Assembly: GCA_051294905.1 (NCBI GenBank)
Contig: CM119371.1
Location: 20,152,001 to 20,216,000, forward strand
Direction: 5' to 3'
DNA from: Botryllus schlosseri
Lineage: Eukaryota
Length of the DNA stretch: 64,000 bases
Shown here: positions 12,905-60,448 of the stretch, in pieces
Layout: every line of letters begins with the position of its first letter
Numbering within the stretch: the stretch's first letter is position 1
Position numbers and translations under genes: made by a program
Notes under the pieces: generated by a model
Told to the model about the DNA's origin: nothing
Database searches by the model: none
Seen by the model: only the letters and a program-made list of their open reading frames with translations

Positions 12905-12940
12905 ATTTTATTAACTGCTATTGACACAATCGACTCTGGA

Positions 12941-13864
12941 ATGACTTTCTCTCAAGAGAAGTATATCCGCGTGCCGGTTCTAGATTTATTGCCGAGCTCT
13001 CAAGACTCTTCGAAAGTATTCAACCACTGGGACAAAATGTTGTCTAGCTTCATATCGGCTGCAGAGTCTTCTTTACCATCGACCAGCAGCACGGACACTG
13101 GACAAGACTCTAGCAGTGGCCGTCCCGGGGCAGTTCTCGATAAGTTGGCTATTTTGATTGGTTATGTATCGCCAAGCGTGTACGCTTTGATCGAAGATCA
13201 TGGCACGTTCGAATCTGCCATGGCACACCTAACCAAGTTATATCGGAAGAAAAAGAACATCATATATGCTCGACATTTACTCGCAACTGCTAAGCAAGAC
13301 TCTGGTGAGACCGTCGCTGATTTCTCACAAAAGATGATCGCTCTGTCTCGTGATTGCAATTTTGAAGCTGTTAATGCAGAAGTGCATAAAATGGAGGCCG
13401 TGCGAGATGCCCTAATTACTGGCTTGCGGTCCTCTGGCATTAGATTGCGTCTTCTCGAACATGATGAGTTAACACTCGAAAAAGCCATGCAGATAGCAGA
13501 CTCTCTTGAACGGGCGCAAGCGTTTTCCTCGTCCTATGAAATATCGCCTCCTACCGCTAACATGGTTCCGGGAAATCAGGAAATGCAGAAGACTTCACAT
13601 ACACCTGATCAATCGCCTGTGTTGTCCTGCAGCCCTGAATTGGCTGCATTACAGAAGTCTCCTGAAAAAAAGAAGTGCTTATTTTGCGGCGGTTTCCATA
13701 CGATGCTTCGCAAGTTTTGTCCAGCCCGAAACAGCGAATGTTCGAGATGTGGCCGACGGGGTCACTTTGCCAAAGTCTGCAAATTCAATTTGGCTTCGCT
13801 AGCCGGTGTACCCGGTTCTTTAAGGCGTTCTTGTAGATTCGGGGGCATACGAATGCTACATTAG
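12941..13864 (+). CDS. gag: Gag protein of the Gypsy element
   Basis: Capsid-like Q-x-x-x-ETVADF and RDALITGLRSSGIRLRLLE motifs; zinc knuckles CLFCGGFH...C and CSRCGRRGHFAKVC. Confidence 0.92.
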   Translation: MTFSQEKYIRVPVLDLLPSSQDSSKVFNHWDKMLSSFISAAESSLPSTSSTDTGQDSSSGRPGAVLDKLAILIGYVSPSVYALIEDHGTFESAMAHLTKLYRKKKNIIYARHLLATAKQDSGETVADFSQKMIALSRDCNFEAVNAEVHKMEAVRDALITGLRSSGIRLRLLEHDELTLEKAMQIADSLERAQAFSSSYEISPPTANMVPGNQEMQKTSHTPDQSPVLSCSPELAALQKSPEKKKCLFCGGFHTMLRKFCPARNSECSRCGRRGHFAKVCKFNLASLAGVPGSLRRSCRFGGIRMLH

Positions 13865-16583: not shown

Positions 16584-16616
16584 AAGCTAGTCCCTATTTT
16601 TCTTGGTGGGGGTGAA

Positions 16617-16835
16617 TGTGGTGATTGTTGTGATTGTATAAGTGCTGATTACTGTAATTAGTTTACTTTGCTCTGTTCATTCCTTTCGTACCTCAGTTGC
16701 TTATATCTGTGTTGTCGAGTGCATGTCCTAGTTCCGTGAAGTTGATTGTAGCTGAATTTCAGTTAATAAAAACCTAGAAAGCTGTCAAGCAGTTTCGTCT
16801 TCGTCTAGCTACGCTTTCCTCGAAAGGTCACCACA
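16617..16835 (+). repeat. 3' LTR
   Basis: Identical to the 5' LTR, preceded by a polypurine tract. Confidence 0.97.
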
Positions 16836-17835
16836 CTTCTCACTATAGATCAAATAGGAAAGGACTCCAACCTGATCGAAGTCAAAACCTCATTATTTGG
16901 TGTCAAACCTTACGGAGCACGAGCAGTGATATCCGGTGTTCCGATGGATATCACAGAAGAAAAGATCTTGAAAGGGTTATTTGAAATTGGCGTCAATTTC
17001 GTTAAACGGCTAAAGCGCAAAGTAGATGGAAAATATGAGAGCAGCCTCTCGATTTTGTTATGTTTCACATCTGAGACATTCCCTGACTACGTGCATTTTT
17101 CATACCTACGGTTCCGTACCAAACCTTATAACCCGCCACCGCTGAGATGTTTTGGATGCAATAGATATGGCCACACAAAAGAGAACTGTCGTGGGAAACA
17201 ATGCTGTTCAAAATGTGGGGGTCGTGATCACGAGGTTGATAAGTGTACCAAAGATTTATGTTGCATTGATTGTAAACAACCGCACAGTGCTGCTTATGGC
17301 GGGTGTCCGGTGTACAAAGAACAGGCGAAATTACAAATCATAAAATAACGTTCCAAGGTTACTCACTCCGAAGCTAAATCAATACTCAATTCTGAAACAT
17401 CCGAAACACAAGCTACGCGTCTTTACAGTGAAGCGGCGCAGGATAGCGCAACGCGTGTCATCAATCAGCAACGATCAACAATCAACAACCCAAGTCACCG
17501 AGCCACCATCAGGAAGATTCCGCTACAAACAACCTCTAATCACATAAACAAAGACATTGAAAGCAACCGCCCAAACAATCATCCTGATTTGGAACAAAAT
17601 AATCAATCTTCGTTAGCGTATATTGATCCGATCCATCTTATCGCACTACTGGCTGAAATAGTGAAGCTTACATTGGCGGCCTGCAAATCAGACACGGAGT
17701 GTGATGTATACAATATAGTATCCAAAGTTTCTTTGAAATATCTCGGTCGACAGGCAGATGTTGTCACGATGAGAAACATTTTCGTACCCTTCCATGATAT
17801 CAATGACACCAAACCGATGACAAATCCCACAAACG

Positions 17836-19620
17836 ATGGATAATATAGGACTAAACTTTTTACAGTGGAATTGTAGAGGATTATATAGGAAGCATCACGA
17901 ACTAAAACACCTTCTCACGACTCTGGAACGGGCTCCAGATGCGATAATTCTCCAGGAAACACACCTTATCGAAAAATACTCTCCGAAATTTCCAGGATAT
18001 CACTGTCACAGAAAGGACAAATCCCTTCATTCCGGTGGATTGACGATCTTTATTAAATCTTCACATAACTCCAGCATCGAAGCAGTTGCTACAACTGACA
18101 TCGAAGTACTTTGTGTGAAGCTTCATGGACTATCATTGTACAATGTGTACATCCAACCCGACTGCCCTTTACCCGACAGTGATGCGAGCATTTTCGAGAC
18201 GTTACCATCAAAATCCATCGTCTTTGGCGACTTCAATGCACATCATTGGTCGTGGAGTTACCAAACGAACCAACGAGGAACTAAACTTTTTAATGTCCTC
18301 GATCACGCAAACTTAGTCATGTTGAACGCTTCAACTCCAACCCATATCAATATCGCGAGCAATGCTGTCAATCGTTCTTCGTTGCTAGATTTAAAACTCG
18401 CTACTCAAGATATAGCCGCGAGATGCCAAACTGAAATATCTTCGTCGCTGCTAGAAAGTGACCATTTCGTAGTATTCACGAAGTATATGACAAACTCGGC
18501 GATATCTTATTTTTATCGACCACCATCGTGGTCTCTCAAGAAAGCAAATTGGAAGATGTTTTTCTCGAATTGCAGATGAAATGATCGATTTGTCCGATCA
18601 ACGAGAGGTGGAGTCTGCAAATACTATTCTAACAAAATGCATAAAGACAGCAGCGAATCGATCAATACCAAAGATAAAGAATATGGACAAGAAATCTGTT
18701 TCTTGGTGGAGTCCCGAATGTGAGAGAATGATTCGGAGGAAAAGAGCAGCATATTTACGAATGAAGCGCACATTTGATATAATAGACGTTATAAACTTCA
18801 AAAAGGCCAGGTCCGCATGCAGGAGAACTATACTCGAAGCATAACGTCTTTGCCGGGAGTCTTTCTGTTCTTCGCTGAATAATAAATCACGTTTAAATCG
18901 CGTATGGCGGGTTATTCGTAGCAACGCTGGTACAACAGCGCATCAGCAAATTCCTGATATCCGAGTTAATGGAATAGATCACACCGAAGACACGTCAAAA
19001 GCTGAAATAATAGGCGAGCACTTCGCTACCATAAGCAGATCCGATAACTACGCTTCAAATTTCCTCCTTTCCAAGTGTCAACGTGACCAGCATTTACATC
19101 GTGTCTACCTTTCAATGTGAATCTGGAAGATCCAATCAATTTGCCGTTTCAGATGTCGGAACTTAGGGAGGCACTACAGAGTCGGAAAATCTCTTCTCCT
19201 GGGCATGATTCCATAAATTATCAAATGCTGCAAAATCTTTCGGCGTCAGCCCAGACCGAACTTCTTAAGCTATATAACATTTCATTGAGAGATGGAAGGG
19301 CGGAATCCTACAAATACAGTTTTGACAAGGCATGAAGCTAAGCAAGTCATATTGAAATATTGCAAGCAAATTTGGAACCAACATTACCTCGAAGAAGTTA
19401 AAGGCTCTCATTTCAAACTTTTTCGTGAATCTCTTCATCATAGTACACCACCTCTTGAAAATCGCATTAGTGACCGAATATTATTTCGATTGCGCTCAGG
19501 TCATTGTGGACTGAACGCACACTTGTTTAAGATTGGAATCGCGCCTTCACCACATTGTATATAGCTCCTGCAATGAACCTGAGACGGATGAGCACTTTAT
19601 AATGAACTGCCCATCGCACG
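17836..19620 (+). pseudogene. LINE ORF2: AP endonuclease, start of RT, C-terminal zinc finger; RT core missing
   Basis: WNCRG, LQET, GDFNAH and SDH motifs. SPGHDSINYQML...YN (RT N-terminus) joins directly at ~19295 to C-terminal sequence. Frameshifts and stops are present. Confidence 0.88.
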
Positions 19621-32595: not shown

Positions 32596-33663
32596 CTACA
32601 CGGGAATATCATCCAGGTTCGCGTTTAAAATTATATCTTTAACAACGTCAAATACAACTCGAATATTTTTCGTGTCCGTCGCGCATGTCGCGTGATGATA
32701 TATAGCCCCATAATGTTCTGTTCGTGATTGTATAAATTTATCACGAATGAAATTTCGGGCATGCGGCACGCTTCTTCGCTCTCCCATATAGTCAGGGAAA
32801 TAGTCTGCGAGATCTGTCACCATAATTTTCTCCTCAAACAGATCTTTTTTGTTTAGAAACAATATCACTGAAGTGTTCCTGAAGTATTGATGTCCAATGA
32901 TTGTCTCGAAAAGGGCTATGCTTTCGGCCAGGCGGTTAACATGTTGAGACTCCGACAGTACCTGATCGTATTCACTTAACGCTGCTAGAAACAATATCGA
33001 AGTCACGTCCTCAAAGCAATGAATCCATTTCCGCCTCTCCGATCTTTGGCCCCCAACATCTATCATTCTGAAAATAACAGAATTAAGTTTAAAAGTGTAT
33101 TCGTATATTCCCGTGGTCGGTACTCTGACACGTAAGATATCTTGCAGCGTCGGTATATAATCAACTGTCCTTATCCTATCAAGGTCGTTGAGGTAATATG
33201 CTGCTGAGTCTGACAGTTGATATTCATTCCTTCGGCCATAGCATTCCTGCATTCCTTGATCATTCCACAACGAGTGTATCGCTTCTACGTGGTGAGCAAA
33301 CTGATCATGTGTTCGAACATCGCGTGTATCCAGAGCGACCAATACATTTGCATGCGAGACATTGTCTGGGTCCGCGTATCTAATCTGCAGAGTGGACATA
33401 GCCTGTATCAGATTTTCAACGGCGGCGTAAATGTCGGAATGAATCAAATGTGTAAATTCACAGCGCTCGGTATCACTGTATCCTTTCCCATGAATGATGC
33501 GCATTTGTTTGACAAATGTACTTTTTCCACTCTCTCCAGTACCTAGCATAAGTAGTTTAAGTTGTCTTCTGGCTTCATTTTTCGTATCCCGTAATTCATT
33601 TTCAATCCTTGAGTTTATCCGTCTCCTCTTCTTTTGTTCTTGCGTTAGACAGCAGATATTCAT
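32596..33663 (-). CDS. GNAQ: Heterotrimeric G protein alpha subunit, Gq class, intronless
   Basis: 355 aa; [46 protein letters not shown]-terminal CC palmitoylation motif. The symbol denotes the Gq family, not proven orthology. Confidence 0.95.
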
Positions 33664-33908
33664 TCTATTCCAGAATATCTACTAGGCGTTTCGATTGGTC
33701 ACGTTTATATCTGCCACATGAATATGTTTTAAAGATAGGTGTGATCGCTTGAACTGTTAGCCTATACGCTGTCTCAACTGCACAATGAAACCATTATATG
33801 CTGTGATGTTGCATCAGGCAACCCAATCGCCAAAGGCGCTAGTCAGAACTTACTTAATAAATCAATAGGCCTAACACAGGTCGCACGCGTTTTAGTGACA
33901 GTTTATGC

Positions 33909-41695: not shown

Positions 41696-43535
41696 TTCTA
41701 ACGGAATGATGAGTTGGTGTCAGTAGTAAGGATAAGGAATTTTATTGCCCGCCAATCCCAGAAGGCCACGTCGCCTTAATTGCCACGCCTACATTGCCAC
41801 ATCATCCGCCCATTGCCGCACCTATAGGACGCCCCCTTGCCACATCATCCACCCATTGCCGCACCTAGAATTAGGCGACTGCAATGTTTTGTGAATTTCA
41901 ATACCGATTTTCCATCTGTATTTAGCAATATGTATTGAATACCTTTGCGATTTTGAGCGCTGCGACTTGATAATATCAATCCCTACGCTTCTGATGTATG
42001 ATTTTTTGTGATAAGGACCTTGGTAACATTCAGAGTGTGCAACGATTGTTTGGATATACATTATAGCAATTCCCTCACTAAACTATAGGCGGTTATATTA
42101 CTCTATTGGTTAGAGATAACTCATCCGTCCATATTTTTAAACTTGATTTTATGTATACAAGTTACGGTCTCTGCAGGCTCCACATTTTACGACTTATTTT
42201 CATTAGACGCAGGCGAGCGATTCTCAAGTTCGGAGCTACGGAAACAAATCACTCGCATGTGCACGTTTCGAAGTCGTAACAGCTTAGTAGCATATACGCG
42301 AATCCCAAGGCGAAAATAATCGAACTAACAATAGCCGCAGGCGTGCGATTCGCAGGGCTTTATTTATACAAACACTTTCGATACCTGTACGCGAACCCCA
42401 GCGTCATAACGATAAGGTCTAATTAGCGCGTTCTGAAACCGTAAATTTAGTCAACATCACTGAGATAGCCCTGATTTAAAGATGATGATCGAGTGAGACG
42501 ATAGCACTCACCAAGGTTATACTATCTTAACCTTAAACTACTCTCTACTTCACAAAATATAAAGTTATAAAAGTAAATAATCCAGTGATCTATTTTCAAT
42601 CACTATATTTTTCATTAATCAAAACTAAGAACTGTTAGTAGGCAAACCCTAGGACCGATGCAAGACGGCGTGAAACAGCGCTTTCGCTCGATTCTTGTAG
42701 TGACCACATTTCATACGATTCAGTCCTTTTCATGTCACTAGAATAAGGGTGATTAAACCGACAGTGAAACGCCGCCAGCGTCTTATAACGTAATAATGTA
42801 AGCTGCGTCGGGTGCTGCTATAATGTTAGGAGCGAATATAGTAGAAAGTCCACGTCTGGACACCTGTATGCAGATGCGCATACTACCGTAGTAAAACGCA
42901 TAACAGAATGCACGCAAAATTCGATATTACTTTGTGATGATTTTGATGTTGTTCCATACCGATTGGGAAGATAGGACTCCTAATTTCCTAACTAACTACA
43001 TAATCCCTAGTAACATAGTCGGACGCATAACGGAATTTACGCAAAATCGGTATTGCTCTGCGATAATTTTGACCACTACGATTCGAAATATTGTTAACTA
43101 ACCTATGTTTTCGACATAAGATAAGCGTGTAGTGTACAAATTTCGATGTTGCGCAAATACCACAGACATAAGATAAGCGTGTAGTGTACAAATTTCGATG
43201 TTGCGCAAATACCACGATTTTACATCGCATTATTCGAATCGACTACGTACATTGTATAGGTGTGAGGTGAAATAAAACGGATTTACGCAAAAGTTCGACA
43301 CTAAAACGCCGACGGTGTCTTATAAAGTAATAATGTAAGCTGCGATGGATGCTGCTATATAATGCTAGTAGCGAATATAGTAGAAAGTCCGCGTCTGGAT
43401 GAATGTAAGCAGGTGCGCTTAGTAACGTAGTAAATCGCATAACAGAATTTACATAAATTGCTACTTCTACCAACCCTACTCCCGCGGTCGGCCTCGAGTC
43501 CAAATTTTAGCGCTCTTACGAAAAAGATCATAAAA

Positions 43536-43615
43536 TCCGAACTGTGGGACTTGAATCAACACCTAATATATCGTTGCAAGCAGGAAACAGCTGCCTAACC
43601 CACTGAGCCACTTGG
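43536..43615 (-). mobile_element. tRNA-derived SINE-like head inside the piggyBac remnant
   Basis: Minus strand has an A-box-like TGGCTCAGTGG and a B-box-like GATTCAAGTCC. Confidence 0.5.
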
Positions 43616-44212
43616 ATTGATCAGTTGAGAGAGCTGATACCGCTATTGGAAGAAGTGTTTCAGGTTTTGAAAAATTAGAAGAGAATTTTGTTACTGAATT
43701 TCCCACTACGTCATACACAGACGCTCTCGGGGTGAAATCATCGCCTGACTGATTTCACAGCAATATCACCTTTCTAAAATGTCCTGAGTGAGCTTCATAC
43801 CGTAACACAGTCGAGTGTGAAGGCCGTTTATGTAACACGTGCTCAACGTCGCGCATCTTGCAAACTAGGCTCACACACGCGGCGCGCGTTGTTTTGATAG
43901 TCTGGCCGTCACAATATCATTGTATGTAATCGGTAATCGCCTATCAATCAGTTGTACGGTTTATTGCTATGCGTTGAAATAAACCTTGCTCTTTGAACAA
44001 CAACAGATGAATCCATGGTGGTTGAATTGACAGGTAGTGATAACCTGCAACACCTACCTACATGCTTCCTCAGACACAGCTATGCCGTCAATATGGTTTA
44101 TTGTGTATCGCATGCGCATCGCAGCATATATATTCAAGTAAAACGATATATTTACGCTTGGCACAATACAATACATTTCAATCACAAGTGGAATATTGAC
44201 AAACTACACTGC

Positions 44213-44566
44213 TCAAGGATAGAATGAAGGCTTCGTATGGAAGGATGTGAAACATTGACGTCTTATATTGTTACAGAGATAGACCCCGCATACACTGCAA
44301 TAAAATTTTGTCAATTTTGTTGCCAGAGTGACACCAACTTTTTTCGCCTCTTGTAGACGAACATAGCAATAGTGACACCTTCTTCTCATAGCTGCTGTGC
44401 ATATCGGCATGTGCGGTAAAGACATATCGAGCCTCATTTCATTAGGACCTATCTGTGGTGGCAGGCTCCTTCTGGGTCTGATTGCTTGTGATTGGTGCGA
44501 TGTAACCAGGGCAACTATGTGTATTCGACTTGATTGATACCAGCTGCACGCGTAATTAGGCTGCAA
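44213..44566 (-). pseudogene. piggyBac transposase C-terminal cysteine-rich domain remnant
   Basis: HMP...RRRCHYC...TKFYCSVCGVYLC...CFTSFH matches the piggyBac/PGBD CRD pattern. The catalytic DDD domain is absent. Confidence 0.8.
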
Positions 44567-46488
44567 CAGGCCGATCGCAGGCTAGTTGGGTGTAATCAAC
44601 AACTATTCGTGGAAAACCGCGATGTCTACAACGGCGATACAAGATTTATGCCACGGGCGTTCATTCTCGTGAACGGCACAGATTTTTCTGAACTTCACAA
44701 GCATTTTAATCGAACAATGCGATAGTGAAATATGTTATCTATAGCTCATTGTATGCGCATTGACAATACCTATTCATAAATTGCAATTGTGACCCTTTAT
44801 GGCCACTAAAACGCAAGATATCTTCATATGATTGATGCGTGTTTGTAAAAAACTGACCATGGATCCTATAGGATCCACCCGCGGCCAAAGGGTAATGGAT
44901 TTATCTGAGATCATTGCTTTACTTAATCTCTCCAAAATGTGCATTATACAAGTACGTCACCATCGAAACCATCTACCTATAACTAGCTGGCAGTATAATT
45001 GTAGCAAATAGGCTACTCGAGTACTAATTTTAAAGTAACTTAAATATCTAAATGAGCTCTGAGTCGTTGTTATCTCGCATCTTGTACTTGTATTCGCGCT
45101 TTACCTTTACACGTCGTTTTTGTATAATGGATACTAATTTTATTAAAAATACACAAAAAGCACGAAAAATACATTTCATCCCGGAACGGAGCAAGAAAAT
45201 GCGTATGAATTTTGTAAAGTAGATATTATATTCTATTATGTGTATTTAGGGCTAATGCAACATCACTATATTAGCGACAGGCCTGATTTGAACACACTAA
45301 CTTTGCAAATTAAACTTATCACCCACCACGAACACTCAATGAAGAGCACCCTGGAGCACCCTCATAAATGCTCCACAATTCGTGACGTATAATATACTGA
45401 GCATATAATAAGCTGACAAAACTGACACTTGAGTACTCCGAAATGTACAAGTACTTTACCTTTACACGACGTTTTTTTGTAAAATGAATACTAATGGTAC
45501 GCGAATGATCATAGACTAAGCTTGCTTTCAGAGTTGGAAACTAAATGCATACGAAAATTTAACTATGTTTTCCCCTCACGCATCAAATGTAGGCATACTC
45601 AAGTGTTTATGAGGCGGCGAATAGTTCGAAGGCTGTTGGTATGCAAGGACGTCACATAGTATTGTGGAGTTTTCTGTAAACTATAATTCAGTGATCTATT
45701 TTCAATCACTATACTTTTATTAATCGAAACTAAGTACTGTTAGTAGGCAAACCCTAGAAAAGTATCCTCTGATAAAAGCAGGAGTAATTCGTTATCTGTG
45801 AAATATATAGATGGCGCGCAATATGAGCGGTGTTACGAATATAACAGAATTACCATGCTAATATGTGACTCCTCACCTTGAAACTAGGTACGTAGTTGTA
45901 GGACATTGTGATTATGTAGAATACCAAATTTCCTCGTACATTTCATGATGGAACTTTAAAACTAACGCGGCTCTACAACGACTCTTTGCGTACATCTGTT
46001 TTGCGGGAGCGTATATAGCACGTACCCATACATACCCAACTTTAATAACGGAATTACCATGCTTAACATTGAATCCAAACTCTAAACTTGATATGAACAC
46101 ACTAATTTCGCAAATTAAACTTATCACCCACCACGAACACTCAATGAAGAGCACCCTGGAGCACCCTCGTAAATGCTCCACAATTCGTGACGTATAATAT
46201 ACTGAGCATATAATAAGCTGACAAAACTGATACTTGAGTACTCCGAAATGTACAAGTACTTTACCTTTACACGACGTTTTTTGTAAAATGAATACTAATG
46301 GTACGCGAATGATCATAGACTAAGCTTGCTTTCAGAGTTGGAAACTAAATGCATACGAAAATTTAACTATGTTTTCCCCTCACGCATCAAATTAGTTGTA
46401 TCGAGTTATCGAATGATTTTTTTTCTTCACATCAAAATAACTAGAGTGTGTAACTACATTAAAAACGTATCTAAATGAGCTCCAGGTC

Positions 46489-47637
46489 ATTGTGATTATG
46501 CGGCATACCAAATTTCATCACACATTTCATGATGGATCAACTTTAAAACTAACGCAGTTCTATAGCAACTTTTGCCTAAATCTGTTTTCGGTAGCATGTA
46601 CATATCCATATTCAGCTTTAATAACAGAATTACCATGCTAATATGTGACTCCTCACCTTGAAACTTGGTACGTAGTTGTAGGACATTGTGATTATGCAGA
46701 ATACCAAATTTCTTCACGCATTTCATAATGGAACAACTTTAAAACTAACGCGGCTCTACATCGACTTTTTGCGTTCATCTGTTTTGCGGGAGCGTATAGC
46801 ACGTACCTATACATAGTCAACTTTAATAACGGAATTACCATGCTTAACATTGAATCCCAACTCTAAACTTGATTCGTAGTTGTAGGACATTGTGGCAATG
46901 CACCATGCTAAATTTCATCGCACATCTAATGATGGATCACCTTTAAAACTAACGCAGTCGAATACCGACTTTTAAGCATATCTGTTTTGCGTGCACATAG
47001 CATATACCTATGCATAGTCAATTTTAATAGCAGAATTACCGTGTTAAACATTGAATTCCCACCTTGAAAGTTGGTACGCGATTATAGGACACTATAACAA
47101 TGCACCATACCAAATCCCATCACACATTTCATGATGGAACAACTTTAAAACTAACGCGGCTCTACATCGACTTTTTGCGTATATCTGTTTTGCGGGGGCG
47201 TATAGCACGTACTCATACATAGCTAACTTTAATAACGGAATTACCATGCCTAACATTGAATCCCAACTCTAAACTTGATACGTAGTTGTAGGACATTATG
47301 GCAATGAACCATGCTAAACTTCATCACACATCTAATGATGGAACACGTTTGAAACTATCGCAGTCGAATACCGACTTTTACACATATCTGTTTTTCGTGA
47401 ACATAGCATATACCCATACATAGTCAATTTTAATAACAGAATTAGCATGCTAAACCTTAAATTCTCACCTTGAACGTTGGTACCCAGTTGTAGGACATAA
47501 TAACAATGCACCATACCAAATTTCGTCAGGCATTTCATGATGTAACACTTTCAAAACCAACGCAGTTCTATACAGGCTTTTGGCTAAATCTGTTTTTCCG
47601 TAGCGTAGCACGTACCTAGACATAGTCAACTTTAATA
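46489..47637. repeat. ~200-bp tandem repeat array (~5.5 units, 406-bp dimeric higher order); mirror copy at ~54177-55325
   Basis: Unit starts at ~46489, 46685, 46889, 47091, 47295, 47497. Alternate units share diagnostic motifs (CGCGGCTCTACATCGAC vs CGCAGTCGAATACCGAC). A further partial unit lies at ~45841-46093. Confidence 0.9.
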
Positions 47638-50600
47638 TCAATACATGTTTATCGTAAGTCCTACGCAGTCATGATATCCGGCCGAGTTTGACTTTTAGAA
47701 AACATTATACCGACATCGCGACATCTTACAAAATTGAAACCGCGGTGACTGCTTGAGAGACCTACCAGTGATATCGCGGTAATCTAGTTACTTCCACAAA
47801 ATAGTATGTATTCAACTTACTTTCCACAAATCTAACGCGCAAAACAATTTACTTTGCTAACGAAAAGTGCTGAGTCATCATATCATTATCCATGCAACAA
47901 TACACCTAAAACATACTATCGTACAAAATGGTCGCTAACCTCTTTGTGCACCAGCTGTAAATCTCACAAGCAACAAGTTTCAAGATTCCAGTTATTGAAA
48001 AAATGTTAAAGTGTTTCTCCTGCGCCAAGTCGTCATGTTGACGAAAGCGTATATTGTAATATCATGATCGATTTGCATTCGTTGGTCACAAACTGTCACT
48101 ACTCTAAATAATTATTTTTCATTCAAACACAACAGCATACTTGTCGCCATTCGTTTTCATTAAGCACGAGTTCAATAAACTTACTTACTACGACATGAAT
48201 TGGTATTTTTATGTTGTGTAAATAGGTAATAATTAATTTTAGTAACACTATACCAACATCATCGAGTTGTGCGAATAGATTTACATGTGGTGTTATGGTT
48301 TTAATCGAAGTACACTGCACGATCTAATGTAGAGTCATCTCTATTGTATAGCAACTCGGTAATCGAAATGCATGCATTAACATTTAAACAGCGATCGTGT
48401 TTCGTCACGCGAAAAATATGTTCACTACTGCGATACTCTGCACAGGGCATGCAAATCCTTTTCACACTCGTAATAGTATACCAACGGCTACCGGCGACAA
48501 CGTTTAACAATACCAACGACACTAAACATACGATACCTACCCAATCTGCAAATTGTTTCGATTTATTCTGTCCGTTTCAATTTAAGATAAGGAAGCCCAT
48601 TTCACTCAATGTATCGATGCCTACGGTACTCTACAAAATTTTCTGATTAATTCTCCCTATGCTTATTTATCACAAGAAAGATGATTTGACACCTAAAGTA
48701 CGAAATACTTTTTCCCTTGAGCTAAGCCGCAGCGCCTGGAGTGGAATTTTACGGGGTATGTGGACTCATTTCGTAGGGCTCTATACCATAGGAGCATACT
48801 TTACGCTCCAATTCGATTCCCACACATTCCATATAATTACTAACAGAACCATTGAGTACCAGCCTTGACATTTTCCGTAGTACTAGATGGCATGTATACA
48901 ATTTCACGACATCCGACATTACGACGAAGACTATCAAAATATCGAAAGAAGCCCTCTATTCTTTTCTGAAATAATCAAGGTTTTATCAGGACTTCCCTTC
49001 ATATAAACTCCAGCAGAATCACTAATAACCTCTCAAGTGTACTCAATTTACTCTAATTTGATACTCATGTACCAAATCCCTATTTTCCGCAAGTATGATA
49101 GAGGCTATCGCTCGATACTCAACGATTCGTAATTTTGCTGGAATTCAAGTACAATTAGTTTAAAGTAGTCCGAGGTTACGTTTGTATCACCTTGACAAGT
49201 GCTATTATCAAAAAATGCTTTTGCTAAACTCTTACACTTTCACTAAACTTCTACACTGAATCTTGTAAAGTAGATAGAAAAGGAAAACTATTAACATAAG
49301 GTAAGTGAGAAGCACGCAAATTTCGATTGCATACAAATGCCAAAAACTGCGCTAACTTCCAGAGTTGTTAAGTATAGAAGTACTCGTACGTCTTGAGAAT
49401 ACCCAAGTAGTTTTTTTGCCTACGTGTACCAAATACTCTCAAGTCCTTATGATATTGGAGTACATCAACTTCATGATAGCTACAGTATTAAACAGAAATA
49501 GACCTAGAGTACTAACGTTTTTGTGCAGTGAGAGTTCGCAAATTATCGAAGTATTTTAGTTATTTTTATTGCGATAAGTCATTCTGCAGCGCAAAAATGC
49601 GTCGTAGGATATAGATGAAACTAGCACCACTCATCAAGACCGCTGATAACAGTACATTTCAACATTTAGTTGCAGTAAATTTCGAGTAAAGTACAAGAAG
49701 TGATGATTTCCGAGTGAGTTAAAAAGTAAGTATTGCAGGTATAGTTTACCTGAAAACCGAATACTCTGAAATAGAAGTAGATGCAGTGTAAATAGTTAAT
49801 CACTTGATTAAGTATAGCGCAAGCAGATAAAACCTATACTTGAGTACTACAAAATACACGAGTACTTCGCTATCGACTCCCTCCACGTAATAAAAAACTA
49901 CGGTTTAAGACTGCTTTTACCGATACTCGTCAGTTTCCGTTTTAGATAGAATTCGGAAACCAAATAATTTCATAAACATAAGCTAATTAAATGAATTTAC
50001 TCGAATGTACTATGCCGCGCTGATAAGATTAATTATAATATACTTATCATGTTAGAGCGATTTTTCTAGCGTATAAAATCTTTAAAATGTAGTAAGCAGG
50101 CCAATATGAAGATATTCGTTGAGCTGAATAAACATAAAAAATACTCTAGACTACTTTATCGGTACTTTACAGTTTCAGTTTTAGATAAAATTTGTCCCTT
50201 TCACTCCTCGCTATCTAAACATGTTTAGAATATATTATTTGCGATGATACGAACCCGTAAAGTACTCAAGTAGCTTTTCGTTGGATATAGATGAAACTGA
50301 CACCACTCACCAAGACCACTGGCCCACTGACAAAAAGTACATTTCAACATTTTAGTAACAGTAAAGTCCTACTAAAGTATAAGAAGTCATGATTTCCGAG
50401 TGAGTTAAAAAGTAAGTATTGAAGGTATAGTTTGCTCGAAAACCGAAAAACTCTGAAATAGAAGTAGATGCAGTGTAAATAGTCAATCACTTCATTTAGT
50501 ATAGCGCAAGCATGCCAAACCTATACTTGAGTACTCCAAAATATACAAGTACTCCCTCCACGTAAAAAGCGACTGGGGTTTAGACTACTTTATCGGTACT

Positions 50601-50928
50601 TGACAGTTTCAGTTTTAGTTAAAATTTGGTGAGACTTTAAATTTTAAAGTAGTTTGAGCTTACGTGTGTATCACCTTGACAAGTATCATTATCAGACATG
50701 AAAATGATACTATCACCTAATACAGAAGTTAACACACGTCAATGTGCTTCGGAATTCACGAGAAATTGCTTACTAAGAGAAGTATATTCTTGTATACACA
50801 ATAGTGGAGAGAATCTTTAAAATGTAGTAAGCAGGCCGATGGGTATTCATTGAGTTGTATAAGCATAAAAAACATTCCCGCGCGCTCCTAAACCTAACAC
50901 TTCCTACCCTACCACCTAATACTAAGAC

Positions 50929-53900
50929 GCGCGCGGGAATGTTTTTTATGCTTATACAACTCAATGAATACCCATCGGCCTGCTTACTACATTTTAAAGA
51001 TTCTCTCCACTATTGTGTATACAAGAATATACTTCTCTTAGTAAGCAATTTCTCGTGAATTCCGAAGCACATTGACGTGTGTTAACTTCTGTATTAGGTG
51101 ATAGTATCATTTTCATGTCTGATAATGATACTTGTCAAGGTGATACACACGTAAGCTCAAACTACTTTAAAATTTAAAGTCTCACCAAATTTTATCTGAA
51201 ACTGAAACTGTCAAGTACCGATAAAGTAGTCTAAACCCTAGTCGCTTTTTACGTGGAGGGAGTACTTGTATATTTTGGAGTACTCAAGTATAGGTTTGGC
51301 ATGCTTGCGCTATACTAAATGAAGTGATTGACTATTTACACTGCATCTACTTCTATTTCAGAGTTTTTCGGTTTTCGAGCAAACTATACCTTCAATACTT
51401 ACTTTTTAACTCACTCGGAAATCATGACTTCTTGTACTTTAGTAGGACTTTACTGTTACTAAAATGTTGAAATGTACTTTTTGTCAGTGGGCCAGTGGTC
51501 TTGGTGAGTGGTGTCAGTTTCATCTATATCCAACGAAAAGCTACTTGAGTACTTTACGGGTTCGTATCATCGCAAATAATATATTCTAAACATGTTTAGA
51601 TAGCGAGGAGTGAAAGGGACAAATTTTATCTAAAACTGAAACTGTAAAGTACCGATAAAGTAGTCTAGAGTATTTTTTATGTTTATTCAGCTCAACGAAT
51701 ATCTTCATATTGGCCTGCTTACTACATTTTAAAGATTTTATACGCTAGAAAAATCGCTCTAACATGATAAGTATATTATAATTAATCTTATCAGCGCGGC
51801 ATAGTACATTCGAGTAAATTCATTTAATTAGCTTATGTTTATGAAATTATTTGGTTTCCGAATTCTATCTAAAACGGAAACTGACGAGTATCGGTAAAAT
51901 CAGTCTTAAACCGTAGTTTTTTATTACGTGGAGGGAGTCGATAGCGAAGTACTCGTGTATTTTGTAGTACTCAAGTATAGGTTTTATCTGCTTGCGCTAT
52001 ACTTAATCAAGTGATTAACTATTTACACTGCATCTACTTCTATTTCAGAGTATTCGGTTTTCAGGTAAACTATACCTGCAATACTTACTTTTTAACTCAC
52101 TCGGAAATCATCACTTCTTGTACTTTACTCGAAATTTACTGCAACTAAATGTTGAAATGTACTGTTATCAGCGGTCTTGATGAGTGGTGCTAGTTTCATC
52201 TATATCCTACGACGCATTTTTGCGCTGCAGAATGACTTATCGCAATAAAAATAACTAAAATACTTCGATAATTTGCGAACTCTCACTGCACAAAAACGTT
52301 AGTACTCTAGGTCTATTTCTGTTTAATACTGTAGCTATCATGAAGTTGATGTACTCCAATATCATAAGGATTTGAGAGTATTTGGTACACGTAGGCAAAA
52401 AAACTACTTGGGTATTCTCAAGACGTACGAGTACTTCTATACTTAACAACTCTGGAAGTTAGCGCAGTTTTTGGCATTTGTATGCAATCGAAATTTGCGT
52501 GCTTCTCACTTACCTTATGTTAATAGTTTTCCTTTTCTATCTACTTTACAAGATTCAGTGTAGAAGTTTAGTGAAAGTGTAAGAGTTTAGCAAAAGCATT
52601 TTTTGATAATAGCACTTGTCAAGGTGATACAAACGTAACCTCGGACTACTTTAAACTAATTGTACTTGAATTCCAGCAAAATTACGAATCGTTGAGTATC
52701 GAGCGATAGCCTCTATCATACTTGCGGAAAATAGGGATTTGGTACATGAGTATCAAATTAGAGTAAATTGAGTACACTTGAGAGGTTATTAGTGATTCTG
52801 CTGGAGTTTATATGAAGGGAAGTCCTGATAAAACCTTGATTATTTCAGAAAAGAATAGAGGGCTTCTTTCGATATTTTGATAGTCTTCGTCGTAATGTCG
52901 GATGTCGTGAAATTGTATACATGCCATCTAGTACTACGGAAAATGTCAAGGCTGGTACTCAATGGTTCTGTTAGTAATTATATGGAATGTGTGGGAATCG
53001 AATTGGAGCGTAAAGTATGCTCCTATGGTATAGAGCCCTACGAAATGAGTCCACATACCCCGTAAAATTCCACTCCAGGCGCTGCGGCTTAGCTCAAGGG
53101 AAAAAGTATTTCGTACTTTAGGTGTCAAATCATCTTTCTTGTGATAAATAAGCATAGGGAGAATTAATCAGAAAATTTTGTAGAGTACCGTAGGCATCGA
53201 TACATTGAGTGAAATGGGCTTCCTTATCTTAAATTGAAACGGACAGAATAAATCGAAACAATTTGCAGATTGGGTAGGTATCGTATGTTTAGTGTCGTTG
53301 GTATTGTTAAACGTTGTCGCCGGTAGCCGTTGGTATACTATTACGAGTGTGAAAAGGATTTGCATGCCCTGTGCAGAGTATCGCAGTAGTGAACATATTT
53401 TTCGCGTGACGAAACACGATCGCTGTTTAAATGTTAATGCATGCATTTCGATTACCGAGTTGCTATACAATAGAGATGACTCTACATTAGATCGTGCAGT
53501 GTACTTCGATTAAAACCATAACACCACATGTAAATCTATTCGCACAACTCGATGATGTTGGTATAGTGTTACTAAAATTAATTATTACCTATTTACACAA
53601 CATAAAAATACCAATTCATGTCGTAGTAAGTAAGTTTATTGAACTCGTGCTTAATGAAAACGAATGGCGACAAGTATGCTGTTGTGTTTGAGTGAAAAAT
53701 AATTATTTAGAGTAGTGACAGTTTGTGACCAACGAATGCAAATCGATCATGATATTACAATATACGCTTTCGTCAACATAACGACTTGGCGCAGGAGAAA
53801 CACTTTAACATTTTTTCAATAACTGGAATCTTGAAACTTGTTGCTTGTGAGATTTACAGCTGGTGCACAAAGAGGTTAGCGACCATTTTGTACGATAGTA

Positions 53901-56900
53901 TGTTTTAGGTGTATTGTTGCATGGATAATGATATGATGACTCAGCACTTTTCGTTAGCAAAGTAAATTGTTTTGCGCGTTAGATTTGTGGAAAGTAAGTT
54001 GAATACATACTATTTTGTGGAAGTAACTAGATTACCGCGATATCACTGGTAGGTCTCTCAAGCAGTCACCGCGGTTTCAATTTTGTAAGATGTCGCGATG
54101 TCGGTATAATGTTTTCTAAAAGTCAAACTCGGCCGGATATCATGACTGCGTAGGACTTACGATAAACATGTATTGATATTAAAGTTGACTATGTCTAGGT
54201 ACGTGCTACGCTACGGAAAAACAGATTTAGCCAAAAGCCTGTATAGAACTGCGTTGGTTTTGAAAGTGTTACATCATGAAATGCCTGACGAAATTTGGTA
54301 TGGTGCATTGTTATTATGTCCTACAACTGGGTACCAACGTTCAAGGTGAGAATTTAAGGTTTAGCATGCTAATTCTGTTATTAAAATTGACTATGTATGG
54401 GTATATGCTATGTTCACGAAAAACAGATATGTGTAAAAGTCGGTATTCGACTGCGATAGTTTCAAACGTGTTCCATCATTAGATGTGTGATGAAGTTTAG
54501 CATGGTTCATTGCCATAATGTCCTACAACTACGTATCAAGTTTAGAGTTGGGATTCAATGTTAGGCATGGTAATTCCGTTATTAAAGTTAGCTATGTATG
54601 AGTACGTGCTATACGCCCCCGCAAAACAGATATACGCAAAAAGTCGATGTAGAGCCGCGTTTGTTTTAAAGTTGTTCCATCATGAAATGTGTGATGGGAT
54701 TTGGTATGGTGCATTGTTATAGTGTCCTATAATCGCGTACCAACTTTCAAGGTGGGAATTCAATGTTTAACACGGTAATTCTGCTATTAAAATTGACTAT
54801 GCATAGGTATATGCTATGTGCACGCAAAACAGATATGCTTAAAAGTCGGTATTCGACTGCGTTAGTTTTAAAGGTGATCCATCATTAGATGTGCGATGAA
54901 ATTTAGCATGGTGCATTGCCACAATGTCCTACAACTACGAATCAAGTTTAGAGTTGGGATTCAATGTTAAGCATGGTAATTCCGTTATTAAAGTTGACTA
55001 TGTATAGGTACGTGCTATACGCTCCCGCAAAACAGATGAACGCAAAAAGTCGATGTAGAGCCGCGTTAGTTTTAAAGTTGTTCCATTATGAAATGCGTGA
55101 AGAAATTTGGTATTCTGCATAATCACAATGTCCTACAACTACGTACCAAGTTTCAAGGTGAGGAGTCACATATTAGCATGGTAATTCTGTTATTAAAGCT
55201 GACTATGGATATGTACATGCTACCGAAAACAGATTTAGGCAAAAGTTGCTATAGAACTGCGTTAGTTTTAAAGTTGATCCATCATGAAATGTGTGATGAA
55301 ATTTGGTATGCCGCATAATCACAATGACCTGGAGCTCATTTAGATACGTTTTTAATGTAGTTACACACTCTAGTTATTTTGATGTGAAGAAAAAAAATCA
55401 TTCGATAACTCGATACAACTAATTTGATGCGTGAGGGGAAAACATAGTTAAATTTTCGTATGCATTTAGTTTCCAACTCTGAAAGCAAGCTTAGTCTATG
55501 ATCATTCGCGTACCATTAGTATTCATTTTACAAAAAACGTCGTGTAAAGGTAAAGTACTTGTACATTTCGGAGTACTCAAGTATCAGTTTTGTCAGCTTA
55601 TTATATGCTCAGTATATTATACGTCACGAATTGTGGAGCATTTACGAGGGTGCTCCAGGGTGCTCTTCATTGAGTGTTCGTGGTGGGTGATAAGTTTAAT
55701 TTGCGAAATTAGTGTGTTCATATCAAGTTTAGAGTTTGGATTCAATGTTAAGCATGGTAATTCCGTTATTAAAGTTGGGTATGTATGGGTACGTGCTATA
55801 TACGCTCCCGCAAAACAGATGTACGCAAAGAGTCGTTGTAGAGCCGCGTTAGTTTTAAAGTTCCATCATGAAATGTACGAGGAAATTTGGTATTCTACAT
55901 AATCACAATGTCCTACAACTACGTACCTAGTTTCAAGGTGAGGAGTCACATATTAGCATGGTAATTCTGTTATATTCGTAACACCGCTCATATTGCGCGC
56001 CATCTATATATTTCACAGATAACGAATTACTCCTGCTTTTATCAGAGGATACTTTTCTAGGGTTTGCCTACTAACAGTACTTAGTTTCGATTAATAAAAG
56101 TATAGTGATTGAAAATAGATCACTGAATTATAGTTTACAGAAAACTCCACAATACTATGTGACGTCCTTGCATACCAACAGCCTTCGAACTATTCGCCGC
56201 CTCATAAACACTTGAGTATGCCTACATTTGATGCGTGAGGGGAAAACATAGTTAAATTTTCGTATGCATTTAGTTTCCAACTCTGAAAGCAAGCTTAGTC
56301 TATGATCATTCGCGTACCATTAGTATTCATTTTACAAAAAAACGTCGTGTAAAGGTAAAGTACTTGTACATTTCGGAGTACTCAAGTGTCAGTTTTGTCA
56401 GCTTATTATATGCTCAGTATATTATACGTCACGAATTGTGGAGCATTTATGAGGGTGCTCCAGGGTGCTCTTCATTGAGTGTTCGTGGTGGGTGATAAGT
56501 TTAATTTGCAAAGTTAGTGTGTTCAAATCAGGCCTGTCGCTAATATAGTGATGTTGCATTAGCCCTAAATACACATAATAGAATATAATATCTACTTTAC
56601 AAAATTCATACGCATTTTCTTGCTCCGTTCCGGGATGAAATGTATTTTTCGTGCTTTTTGTGTATTTTTAATAAAATTAGTATCCATTATACAAAAACGA
56701 CGTGTAAAGGTAAAGCGCGAATACAAGTACAAGATGCGAGATAACAACGACTCAGAGCTCATTTAGATATTTAAGTTACTTTAAAATTAGTACTCGAGTA
56801 GCCTATTTGCTACAATTATACTGCCAGCTAGTTATAGGTAGATGGTTTCGATGGTGACGTACTTGTATAATGCACATTTTGGAGAGATTAAGTAAAGCAA

Positions 56901-58677
56901 TGATCTCAGATAAATCCATTAAATTAAGGTAGAAGTAGCAATTTATGTAAATTCTGTTATGCGATTTACTACGTTACTAAGCGCACCTGCTTACATTCAT
57001 CCAGACGCGGACTTTCTACTATATTCGCTACTAGCATTATATAGCAGCATCCATCGCAGCTTACATTATTACTTTATAAGACACCGTCGGCGTTTTAGTG
57101 TCGAACTTTTGCGTAAATCCGTTTTATTTCACCTCACACCTATACAATGTACGTAGTCGATTCGAATAATGCGATGTAAAATCGTGGTATTTGCGCAACA
57201 TCGAAATTTGTACACTACACGCTTATCTTATGTCTGTGGTATTTGCGCAACATCGAAATTTGTACACTACACGCTTATCTTATGTCGAAAACATAGGTTA
57301 GTTAACAATATTTCGAATCGTAGTGGTCAAAATTATCGCAGAGCAATACCGATTTTGCGTAAATTCCGTTATGCGTCCGACTATGTTACTAGGGATTATG
57401 TAGTTAGTTAGGAAATTAGGAGTCCTATCTTCCCAATCGGTATGGAACAACATCAAAATCATCACAAAGTAATATCGAATTTTGCGTGCATTCTGTTATG
57501 CGTTTTACTACGGTAGTATGCGCATCTGCATACAGGTGTCCAGACGTGGACTTTCTACTATATTCGCTCCTAACATTATAGCAGCACCCGACGCAGCTTA
57601 CATTATTACGTTATAAGACGCTGGCGGCGTTTCACTGTCGGTTTAATCACCCTTATTCTAGTGACATGAAAAGGACTGAATCGTATGAAATGTGGTCACT
57701 ACAAGAATCGAGCGAAAGCGCTGTTTCACGCCGTCTTGCATCGGTCCTAGGGTTTGCCTACTAACAGTTCTTAGTTTTGATTAATGAAAAATATAGTGAT
57801 TGAAAATAGATCACTGGATTATTTACTTTTATAACTTTATATTTTGTGAAGTAGAGAGTAGTTTAAGGTTAAGATAGTATAACCTTGGTGAGTGCTATCG
57901 TCTCACTCGATCATCATCTTTAAATCAGGGCTATCTCAGTGATGTTGACTAAATTTACGGTTTCAGAACGCGCTAATTAGACCTTATCGTTATGACGCTG
58001 GGGTTCGCGTACAGGTATCGAAAGTGTTTGTATAAATAAAGCCCTGCGAATCGCACGCCTGCGGCTATTGTTAGTTCGATTATTTTCGCCTTGGGATTAG
58101 CGTATATGCTACTAAGCTGTTACGACTTCGAAACGTGCACATGCGAGTGATTTGTTTCCGTAGCTCCGAACTTGAGAATCGCTCGCCTGCGTCTAATGAA
58201 AATAAGTCGTAAAATGTGGAGCCTGCAGAGACCGTAACTTGTATACATAAAATCAAGTTTAAAAATATGGACGGATGAGTTATCTCTAACCAATAGAGTA
58301 ATATAACCGCCTATAGTTTAGTGAGGGAATTGCTATAATGTATATCCAAACAATCGTTGCACACTCTGAATGTTACCAAGGTCCTTATCACAAAAAATCA
58401 TACATCAGAAGCGTAGGGATTGATATTATCAAGTCGCAGCGCTCAAAATCGCAAAGGTATTCAATACATATTGCTAAATACACATGGAAAATCGGTATTG
58501 AAATTCACAAAACATTGCAGTCGCCTAATTCTAGGTGCGGCAATGGGTGGATGATGTGGCAAGGGGGCGTCCTATAGGTGCGGCAATGGGCGGATGATGT
58601 GGCAATGTAGGCGTGGCAATTAAGGCGACGTGGCCTTCTGGGATTGGCGGGCAATAAAATTCCTTATCCTTACTACT
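50929..58677 (-). repeat. Right arm of giant inverted repeat (7,749 bp)
   Basis: Reverse complement of the left arm, lacking 43472-44892. Confidence 0.97.
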
Positions 58678-58831
58678 GGTGTCATTTAAATTTTGAAATC
58701 CGTCAAATAAGATGCGTGAATTTTTGATGCACTGCTTGACTGTTCTTGTTGTTGTTGGATGCAATTTGTTCAGCGATTTTAACTCAATGGTTTTGTTCGC
58801 TAGACTGTAATATATATTCATTGTATTTGGC

Positions 58832-60448
58832 TATGACAAATCTATTTATTTCGATCCGAGACAACATGCATCATCGCAGCAGATGAAACAAGACGGTGTT
58901 TGCCATGATTTCATAATTCAAGTCGAGAATGATGAATATCACACTCATCAAAAGACATTGTCTGATGCTTCGGATTATTTCAGAGCGATGTTCAGGCACG
59001 ATACAAAAGAGAGTCGCGAAGAGCGGGTGATTTTGAGAGGTGTGGATTCTGAATGTGTACAAAACTGCATCGAATTCATGTATGATGGGGAATATGAAAT
59101 TCCGAAAGGAAAGATGTACGACTTTCTCCACGTCGCAGTCATGATGCTGCTAGATGACGTTAAAATGACATTATGTGACGTTATGACTGAGTCGTTGACT
59201 GTCAGTAATTACATCTCCACGATGCATGCAGCCGACATGTATGGGCTTGATGACCTGTCAGCATAATGCAGATCTTACTTCCGACGGAACGTCTCGGAAA
59301 TTTACAACCAACCGGGATTTGAAAACACCGAGATGTCCGACCTTCGTGACCTTCTGCGGGCGAAAGAATCAGGAATATGTGAGGAGGACAAGTTGACCTT
59401 CACGCTCATGTGGATTGAGAAGAATCCACGAATGAATTATATGCTGCGTCAATGTATTGATATGGTCAATTTGGGTCATGTCTCTACGGCATTTCTGCAA
59501 AATCTATTAGATAGCCATCCGATCATCAGCAACGACATTGATTTATACAAGCTGATTAATGGCCATCTTATGTCCCATCACATGACAATGGTCCGCAGAG
59601 ATGAGTACTTTAACAATACCAAAAGAATGATACTGTTTGACTATGACGCGAATTGTATCCGGTCATTGCATTCAATAACAGGAAAAATCTCAAAGTTCCA
59701 TGCTGCTAAATTTCGGCATTTCGGAGATTTTTCCGCAATATTACTTGAGTCCCACATTTACATTTTGTGTAAAGATAAATCCGTACACCGAATCAATTTT
59801 CGAGAACATAATTCAAAATGGGAGAAAATGAAAGATATGATATCCGGACACGGGATATGGCCCCCCTCTGTTGCTTTGCTGGGGTCAATATTTGTTATTG
59901 GAGGAAGCATGTCTGGATAGTCTAATATTGTTGATGGATTCAACCCGTCTTCAAACCGATGGTTTCAACTAAAGAACAAACCCACAGCGGTTTCCGATCC
60001 GAGTCTCGTATCACTGAATGGCTCAGTGTATTGTGTCGGAGGTAAAGGACCAAATTGTGTCGCAACTTCCTCATTCTGCAAATTTACTCCGTCCTCGTCA
60101 GAGTGGGTTGACCTCAAACCAATGAGATATCCGAAGTGGGGCAGTGGTGTTGTCGCGTTTGGCCAGAAGATATTCGCGATCGGCGGCTACACCTTGTGGA
60201 AGAAATTGACAAATGTAGAGTGTTATGATGTCACGTCGTCTCAGTGGACTTCACTGTCGCATATGAATAAATGTAATGGTTGGAATACCGCCTTGCGCGT
60301 TGGCAGCTGGATCTTTACCGTACCAGTGTTTAAGTCTATGTCCTCTGATCCAATTGAGAAGTATCATTCACTAAACGACATATGGCAGAGTATGGAACCA
60401 CGTGTAGATCAATGTAGAACTTGCGCAGCCATGCTCGTATCGCAGTAG
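58832..60448 (+). pseudogene. Kelch-like (BTB-BACK-Kelch, KLHL family) pseudogene, intronless
   Basis: BTB (HQKTLSDASDYFRAMF...IEFMYDG), BACK and Kelch repeats (FVIGG, YCVGG, FAIGG, VECYD...W). Three ORFs in one frame are separated by TAA 59264-59266 and TAG 59918-59920. The start is uncertain. Confidence 0.88.

Follow-up and report, generated by a model that had tools for sequence, protein, structure and literature searches.

What is an almost complete palindrome doing in the genome of Botryllus schlosseri, with the tips of a Maverick/Polinton element at its two ends and apparently no gene between them? We addressed this question for the element at positions 41722-58677 of a 64,000-nt stretch of the forward strand (GenBank assembly GCA_051294905.1, contig CM119371.1, positions 20,152,001 to 20,216,000), which was analysed as a whole and is called the window here. 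The window element is 16,956 bp long, starts with AGTAGT and finishes with ACTACT. It is probably one copy of a multi-copy family of gene-less, palindromic satellites of the Maverick/Polinton virus-like elements that are active in this genome. What a preliminary description, made from the letters of the window, took for a single oddity belongs in fact to a family that numbers dozens of copies or more.

The two ends and the palindromic layout were examined base by base. The preliminary description had assigned Polinton/Maverick ends to the element, and this assignment was borne out: the AGTAGT...ACTACT tips and an exact 6-bp target-site duplication (TSD), GGTGTC, were confirmed at both ends, and (AGT)2//(ACT)2 tips with a 6-bp TSD fit the Maverick definition given in excerpts of PMC8097293. 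The same excerpts name this combination, with the 6-bp duplication perfect, as the most frequent end type of vertebrate Mavericks, and assign the repeat of the end motif a role in jumping-back during protein-primed replication (PMC8097293). The outer arms are reverse complements of each other (41721-43471 versus 56928-58678, 1,751 nt) with 2 mismatches. Each arm totals 7,744 nt, and the two differ at 12 bases (2 outer and 10 inner), giving 99.85% identity. Apart from the shared TSD, the two flanks are unrelated to each other. The claim that the element is wholly palindromic stood as far as the near-perfect reverse complementarity of the arms around a 43-nt loop is concerned, but had to be amended for one interruption of 1,421 bases in the left arm. 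The features are as follows.

41716-41721, no strand: left copy of the TSD, GGTGTC, read from the flank sequence
41722-41727, plus strand: terminal AGTAGT, which is the end motif (AGT)2 of Mavericks and is unchanged in all 13 distinct termini that were aligned
41728-41751, plus strand: 24-nt hypervariable block ('barcode'), the same at both element ends, with its right-end counterpart at 58648-58671
41752-41867, plus strand: conserved helper-type terminal repeat, CCAATCCCAGAAGG followed by four CCATTGCCRCAYC iterons at 41791-41865
41868-43090, plus strand: outer-arm segment with homology, at 98.5% identity, to the terminal repeat (1.59 kb) of a second helper lineage
41722-43471, plus strand: left outer arm, pairing with 56928-58677 with 2 mismatches
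43472-44892, no strand: piggyBac-like remnant in the left arm only, with CCC...GGG ends at a TTAA-rich site
44893-50885, plus strand: non-coding left inner arm, in which tandem repeats of 202/406 nt lie at 46504-47637
50886-50928, plus strand: central loop of 43 nt with a single G, clamped by the GC-rich stem CCCGCGCGC/GCGCGCGGG
50929-56921, minus strand: right inner arm, 10 mismatches to the left inner arm across 5,993 nt
56922-56927, no strand: AATTAA, the uninterrupted counterpart of the piggyBac-like insertion site, from the comparison of the arms
56928-58677, minus strand: right outer arm including the right terminal repeat, identified by arm pairing and ending with the tip ACTACT at 58672-58677
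58678-58683, no strand: right copy of the TSD, GGTGTC, read from the flank sequence

The CCATTGCCRCAYC iterons, four at each element end and none elsewhere in the window (0.17 expected), are candidate protein-binding sites. The 1,421 additional bases of the left arm (43472-44892) lie where the right arm reads AATTAA; because the insert is present in the left arm only, the comparison of the arms places its arrival after the palindrome had formed. Without it the element measures 15,541 bp. The insert ends CCCT.../...AGGG at a TTAA-rich site, and the flanking TTAA copies are imperfect. Its open reading frame (ORF) at 44213-44581 on the minus strand, Cys-rich at the C-terminus, had no match in a Pfam scan; as a lead only, its nearest protein clusters have PF13842 or PF13843 in 16-29% of members, PF13842 being present in 18-29% of the members of clusters that resemble the ORF. 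In the short contigs of run X1, a loose end at 43471 continues into AATTAA, the insert-free form.

The preliminary description had also called the element gene-less, and every search agreed. Only 4 stop-to-stop ORFs of at least 90 amino acids were found in the left half, and 0 of 2 ORFs scanned against Pfam had a match. When 25 ORFs of two Mavericks were compared with the window element by tblastn, the best E was 0.13; as a positive control, the ORFs of the two Mavericks matched each other's element strongly. The proteins that define an autonomous Maverick, namely protein-primed family B polymerase (pPolB), integrase, capsid, ATPase and protease, had no match in the window element among these 25 ORFs. 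The ORF listing, Pfam and tblastn revealed no transposase remnant besides the piggyBac-like insert, and Rfam and tRNA scans of the element returned no family and no tRNA. The tRNA-like look of a stretch near 43540-43620 was not supported by the tRNA scan. The observed/expected ratio of CpG is about 1.0-1.2 in the element and its flanks, with no sign of methylation-driven CpG loss.

We then asked how often this architecture occurs in the 495.5-Mb assembly, whose 219 contigs are labelled C1, C2 and so on. The terminal 300 nt of the window element gave 718 candidate matches genome-wide, in inverted pairs from a few kb to about 20 kb apart. Eleven gene-less copies besides the window copy were examined, the pieces of each being kept separate, and 10 of them (11 of 12 with the window copy) are palindromic over most of their length. 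Arm identity within a copy is 98.8-100% in the palindromic copies C13, C16, C14, C15, C8, C2, C1b, C3 and C1c and in a 5.1-kb copy that was seen over part of its DNA only. The exception to palindromy is a small gene-less copy on C7, with a terminal repeat of merely 624 nt. Satellite C2 has an unpaired middle of 1.2 kb, and one-armed changes were found in C13, in which part of one arm is deleted, and in C1c, in which one arm contains a long interspersed nuclear element (LINE). Sizes among the examined copies range from 5.1 to 19 kb.

The same 43-nt loop occurs in 9 of 10 copies. A genome-wide search with its 25-nt core gave 29 forward and 25 reverse hits (at least 54), as against 0/0 for the reversed control, so copies have been inserted in either orientation; a bias of loop orientation in the copy sample (8 of 9 forward) disappeared at this scale. 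Among 2,943 candidate matches to a 1.8-kb inner segment, the 40 that were scored are 97-100% identical and mostly lie in inverted pairs. Sixteen elements with both ends could be inspected for TSDs: 13 have a perfect 6-bp duplication, 1 matches at 5 of 6 positions and 2 do not match, one of the latter being C16, whose right tip is three bases short. The chance of a matching 6-mer at both flanks is 1/4096, so that chance is excluded as the source of 13 matches in 16 elements. These duplications also exclude an assembly artefact and show that the elements were repeatedly integrated as units, as the preliminary description had argued for the window palindrome from its perfect TSD; the further palindromic copies with 6-bp duplications of their own that it had envisaged were recovered by the search with the termini. 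In Logan contigs from three DNA-like runs of different samples, depth over the element is that of a multi-copy sequence, including over the loop bin, and the short contigs of these runs contained no piece across a junction or across the whole centre.

The termini of the family follow a recurrent pattern. AGTAGT followed by 22-26 bases and CCAATCNNAGAAGG was found 141 times forward and 140 times in reverse in the genome, with 0/0 for the reversed control, and a second end type, AGTAGT ... CCTCAGGCTATT, has 54 forward and 52 reverse matches. Neither IMG/VR nor metagenome contigs contained an exact match to the terminal-repeat pattern. Alignment of 13 distinct termini, an autonomous copy included, showed that positions 1-6 are invariant and positions 31 to about 100 nearly invariant; positions 7-30 comprise 11 different 24-mers in the same alignment. 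A manual count over 100 listed termini gave about 58 distinct 24-nt blocks in about 60 elements, and the two ends of one element nearly always share their block. The blocks resemble re-assortments of a few alternative sub-blocks, with a vocabulary common to both end types. Two neighbouring polymerase-bearing elements, C4:11821006-11838754 and C4:11847292-11865392, each have unlike blocks at their ends and may be recombinants or wrongly paired ends.

Autonomous Mavericks/Polintons encode a protein-primed family B polymerase and a retroviral-type integrase (excerpts of PMC5499653). A whole-genome profile search with PF03175 gave 9 candidates, none of them significant. A search with PF04665 led to a Maverick on C11 (C11:4506703-4526063), and the polymerase fragment of this element in turn gave 118 matches (117 of 261 candidates scored), many of them in open frames of about 1,290-1,310 amino acids. 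PF03175 thus misses at least 118 polymerase copies, which a protein-language-model search places beside PF03175 clusters, and surveys relying on PF03175 would overlook the Mavericks of this genome. This first Maverick has different ends and no DNA similarity to the window arm. Terminus pairs on C1-C4 enclose a polymerase match in 11 of 40 cases, the compact ones measuring 17.5-18.4 kb; among the polymerase-less pairs on these contigs, 10 of 29 measure 15.3-16.1 kb, about 88% of the helper length. The window copy without its insert, at 15,541 bp, falls into the same size class, which is no more than a hint of a size effect; a strict packaging-size rule is unsupported despite this cluster, as satellites span 5.1-19 kb.

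Two autonomous elements with the tips and terminal repeats of the window element were found in the same genome, in agreement with the preliminary description, and are referred to as helpers. The first, C1:23798357-23816022, is 17,666 bp long, lies between copies of the TSD CAAAGA and has AGTAGT tips with terminal repeats of 140 nt. The nearest clusters of its 1,294-amino-acid frame contain PF03175 (protein-language-model score 0.97), and the element also encodes an A32-type ATPase, an integrase with rve and chromodomain, and a BIR gene. A further protein of 425 amino acids has 4,683 relatives in a full HMMER search (a word-index search gave 1), and 5 of 82 aligned members of this family match the double-jelly-roll family PF21738. 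Its predicted fold is a double jelly roll (predicted local distance difference test score 93.3), the nearest structures being the capsid proteins of Sputnik (best, E 2e-16), PBCV-1 and mavirus (E 2e-16 to 5e-14); judged by this model, it is a double-jelly-roll capsid protein. Compared by sequence with the chains of the PDB, the 1,294- and 425-amino-acid proteins returned zinc-finger noise or nothing. Both ends of the C1 helper match window positions 41740-41867 (128 nt) at 94-95%, and the rest of this helper has no match to the window arm.

The second helper, C11:2510280-2563859, carries the second end type and is flanked on both sides by the TSD CTCGTG. Its two terminal repeats, of 1,591 nt, are 99.94% identical to each other, and its first 10 kb contain BIR ORFs together with a polymerase frame that stays open for at least 1,149 amino acids. 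This element spans 53.6 kb, far above the other helpers, with the polymerase frame 6-10 kb from the left end, and probably holds nested insertions. Mavericks of this genome carry cell-death and ubiquitin cargo: a BIR gene is present in both C11:4506703-4526063 and the C1:23798357 element, a caspase-domain ORF lies inside C11:4506703-4526063, and an ORF for a ubiquitin-conjugating enzyme lies beside that element on the opposite strand.

Comparison of satellites with helpers indicated where the outer arms come from. Satellite C2 matches the C11:2510280 repeat at 99.87% over 1,587 nt, the variable block included, and this is the one satellite-helper pair found with an identical barcode. The window segment 41868-43090 matches the same repeat (L056 194-1417) at 98.5% over 1,224 nt, and window 45228-45422 matches it at about 90%. 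Terminal bases 1-146 and 147-300 of the window element match different sets of loci. Because the tip and the repeat body match different helper lineages, the window copy is, by its sequence, a chimera in which a 146-nt tip of the first end type is joined to the repeat body of the second helper.

Satellites C16, C14 and C15 are collinear with the left end of the C1 helper beyond its terminal repeat (340-366 nt at 91-92%), and further share with it, in each arm, 58 nt at 98% and a remnant of the left-most ORF of the helper. The right-unique 4 kb of the helper has no counterpart in these three satellites. Left-end helper DNA in both arms fits an inverted duplication of one genome end. The parts of the window element without a match in the helper DNA compared are the tandem repeats, the stretch at 47.6-50.9 kb and the loop, and so roughly the inner 6 kb of the arm; with most of the arm unmatched there, folding back a helper genome would not by itself account for the element. 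The snap-back origin suggested in the preliminary description was therefore upheld in part: the outer arms are mirrored helper end sequence, with left-end DNA in both arms of C16, C14 and C15, but most of the arm remains outside this account.

The arms of a given copy resemble each other more than they resemble those of other copies. A maximum-likelihood tree was built from a 1.3-kb segment beside the loop (11 rows); it excluded the incomplete pieces of C14 and C2 as well as the second C8 arm, whose sequence is divided between two loci. In all 4 copies represented by both arms, the two arms are sisters (support 100/97, 100/99, 99/96 and 87/85). Over the segment, the arms of one copy are 99.3-99.8% identical, as against 94-99% for different copies. 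Both window arms have about 6 substitutions per 1.3 kb that occur in no other copy, which indicates that one arm was copied or corrected from the other. Correction inside the chromosome looks weak at best, because the 12 differences and the one-armed insert of the window element persist, as do the one-armed indels of other copies; homogenisation during a replicative phase is favoured.

Taken as a mechanism, a helper polymerase would in all likelihood start at the AGTAGT tips at either end of a satellite, and a helper integrase would insert the copy and make the 6-bp duplication. We lean towards an origin in which snap-back or template switching, in the course of strand-displacement replication, produced an inverted duplicate of one helper end, the inner arm then acquiring unrelated non-coding DNA. 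It is conceivable, if a little short of probable, that a displaced palindrome strand would fold at once into a full hairpin and rebuild a double-stranded origin, where repair or copying would keep the arms alike; such folding would spare the two ends the need to find each other. Tips would be exchanged between lineages by recombination, and the window copy would be such a chimera.

Several points weigh against this scheme. The short contigs contained no extrachromosomal, hairpin or protein-linked form. Mobilisation in trans is suggested by shared ends and co-occurrence, and the list of elements on C1-C4 contains no barcode common to polymerase-bearing and polymerase-less elements. The arm at about 43.1-50.9 kb had no match in the helper DNA compared, namely the C1 helper in full and 10 kb of the C11:2510280 helper. 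The 1.59-kb repeat could have passed from helper to satellite or in reverse, and gene conversion in the chromosome could be what keeps the arms alike.

A wider interpretation, possible but doubtful, is that the Mavericks of this genome are true viruses with defective or satellite genomes. The satellites would replicate by way of full-length hairpins formed by displaced strands, one arm being remade or repaired from the other in every cycle; they would compete for the polymerase, capsid and integrase of the helper, and the 24-nt block would reflect active diversification or exchange at protein-primed origins. Such diversification may mean, for example, escape from a host factor or from satellite parasitism.

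The alternative that survives best, though we judge it unlikely, is that these are ordinary non-autonomous transposons with Maverick ends, whose terminal repeats have grown to full length and whose arms are kept alike by gene conversion in place, with no hairpin replicon, packaging or size constraint. Concerted arms are equally expected from conversion in place, the wide variation of satellite size (5.1-19 kb) agrees with it, and the 1.59-kb repeat already present in one helper lineage implies that repeat length is a continuum. However, the 12 differences and the 1.4-kb insert persist in one window arm, and the LINE in one arm of C1c and the deletion in one arm of C13 are uncorrected, which leaves at best a weak role for homogenisation in place, although the two window arms alone share about 6 substitutions per 1.3 kb. 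On these grounds we prefer homogenisation of the satellites while they replicate.

Palindromes might instead be kept for the production of long hairpin RNA that feeds small-RNA silencing, in host defence or as interference of a satellite with its helper. An inverted repeat of 7.7 kb around a 43-nt loop would give double-stranded RNA if transcribed, and the outer 0.15-1.6 kb of the arms are helper sequence. What is represented, however, is only the non-coding ends of the helper, with no helper gene matched, and one bulk RNA run gave 56 reads, all just partly on the element stretch. We consider this explanation improbable. Still less can be said for an element of another superfamily with long tandem-repeat arms, Foldback-like or derived from P or Mutator, that mimics Maverick ends: the 202/406-nt tandem repeats in the arms are a Foldback-like trait, but over the terminal 128-1,587 nt the satellites agree at 94-99.9% with the ends of Mavericks that encode a polymerase and an integrase, the duplication is 6 bp long, the tips read (AGT)2, and the sole transposase remnant found is the secondary piggyBac-like insert, which makes this very improbable. 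An assembly artefact such as a chimeric fold-back long read, which arms 99.85% identical around a tiny loop do resemble, has a negligible probability given the unrelated flanks with a TSD, the private transposon insert in one arm, the recurrence of architecture and loop at dozens of loci on many contigs with TSDs of their own, and the depth over the loop bin in contigs from the runs of three samples.

We next considered how the satellites, read as helper-dependent Maverick derivatives, compare with known systems. They share with Mavericks/Polintons the (AGT)2//(ACT)2 tips, the 6-bp TSD and terminal inverted repeats common with autonomous copies, and differ in that the window element is gene-less, its 7.7-kb arms span the whole element and the arms evolve in concert. 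The terminal repeats of vertebrate Mavericks measure 402 +/- 276 bp (excerpts of PMC8097293), and non-autonomous Polintons are known as a notion (excerpts of PMC5499653). In a literature search that lay outside Repbase and the two founding papers, we met with no account of Maverick satellites that are wholly palindromic, gene-less and multi-copy and whose arms evolve in concert.

Adenovirus helper-dependent and snap-back genomes are likewise gene-less, keep terminal origins and end-proximal signals, and have one genome end duplicated in inverted orientation. Snap-back molecules occur in incomplete adenovirus particles. Copying by a protein-primed polymerase supplied in trans would, for the satellites, be a further likeness. 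According to excerpts of PMC4189039, a gene-less 15-kb adenovirus vector genome was packaged as direct and inverted dimers, and the subgenomic adenovirus DNA in virions holds left-end sequence; here, left-end sequence of the helper is found in both arms. Unlike these adenovirus genomes, the satellites are integrated into chromosomes, presumably by an integrase, and form a long-lived, diversified family in which most of the arm is non-helper sequence; no virion has been seen.

Foldback (FB) elements of Drosophila resemble the satellites in their very long inverted arms, internal tandem repeats, small or absent middle and mostly non-coding copies, and differ in end sequence, TSD length and helper: FB elements have a 9-bp TSD, whereas the satellite ends are Maverick ends with a TSD of 6 bp. 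A palindrome or hairpin as the replicative form, which for the satellites would follow from the proposed mechanism, is also a property of the hairpin and palindromic derivatives of protein-primed linear plasmids and of rolling-hairpin replicons such as parvoviruses and poxvirus telomeres. Replication primed by a hairpin can dispense with a terminal protein; the satellites, by contrast, keep the end motif of protein priming. In large genomic palindromes, for example those of sex chromosomes, the arms are also closer to each other within a palindrome than between copies; such palindromes, with gene conversion from arm to arm, are non-mobile and have neither a TSD nor viral ends, whereas the satellites are mobile and have both.

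We know of no direct observation of Maverick/Polinton replication. Mavericks/Polintons are widely thought to be viruses, their virions being described as unobserved in excerpts of PMC8097293. Defective and satellite genomes are a signature of viral replication, and from a family that keeps only mirrored helper ends one can read off what is sufficient in cis, namely the tip, the iterons and the left-end region. With the satellites as a natural reporter, protein-primed replication, hairpin intermediates and integration could be followed in an animal, and both the concerted arms and the hypervariable origin block are testable. Perfect palindromes of 5-20 kb tend to be unstable and are difficult to assemble; with dozens to hundreds of copies present, the family is also relevant to genome assembly and structural variation in this species.

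The element has animal genes for neighbours, encoding a G-alpha protein and a BTB-Kelch protein, alongside LINE and gypsy-type elements. Window positions 12878-18579 contain a gypsy-type pol ORF (13824-16583; protease, reverse transcriptase, RNase H and integrase) followed by a LINE-type endonuclease ORF (17821-18579), and the region looks like a nest of retroelements. An uninterrupted ORF of 360 amino acids for a G-protein alpha subunit (Pfam G-alpha, E 7e-126), apparently intronless, lies at 32596-33678 on the minus strand. On the plus strand, a BTB-BACK-Kelch frame at 58811-60448 starts 128 nt past the right end of the element and is probably a pseudogene, because it contains two in-frame stops.

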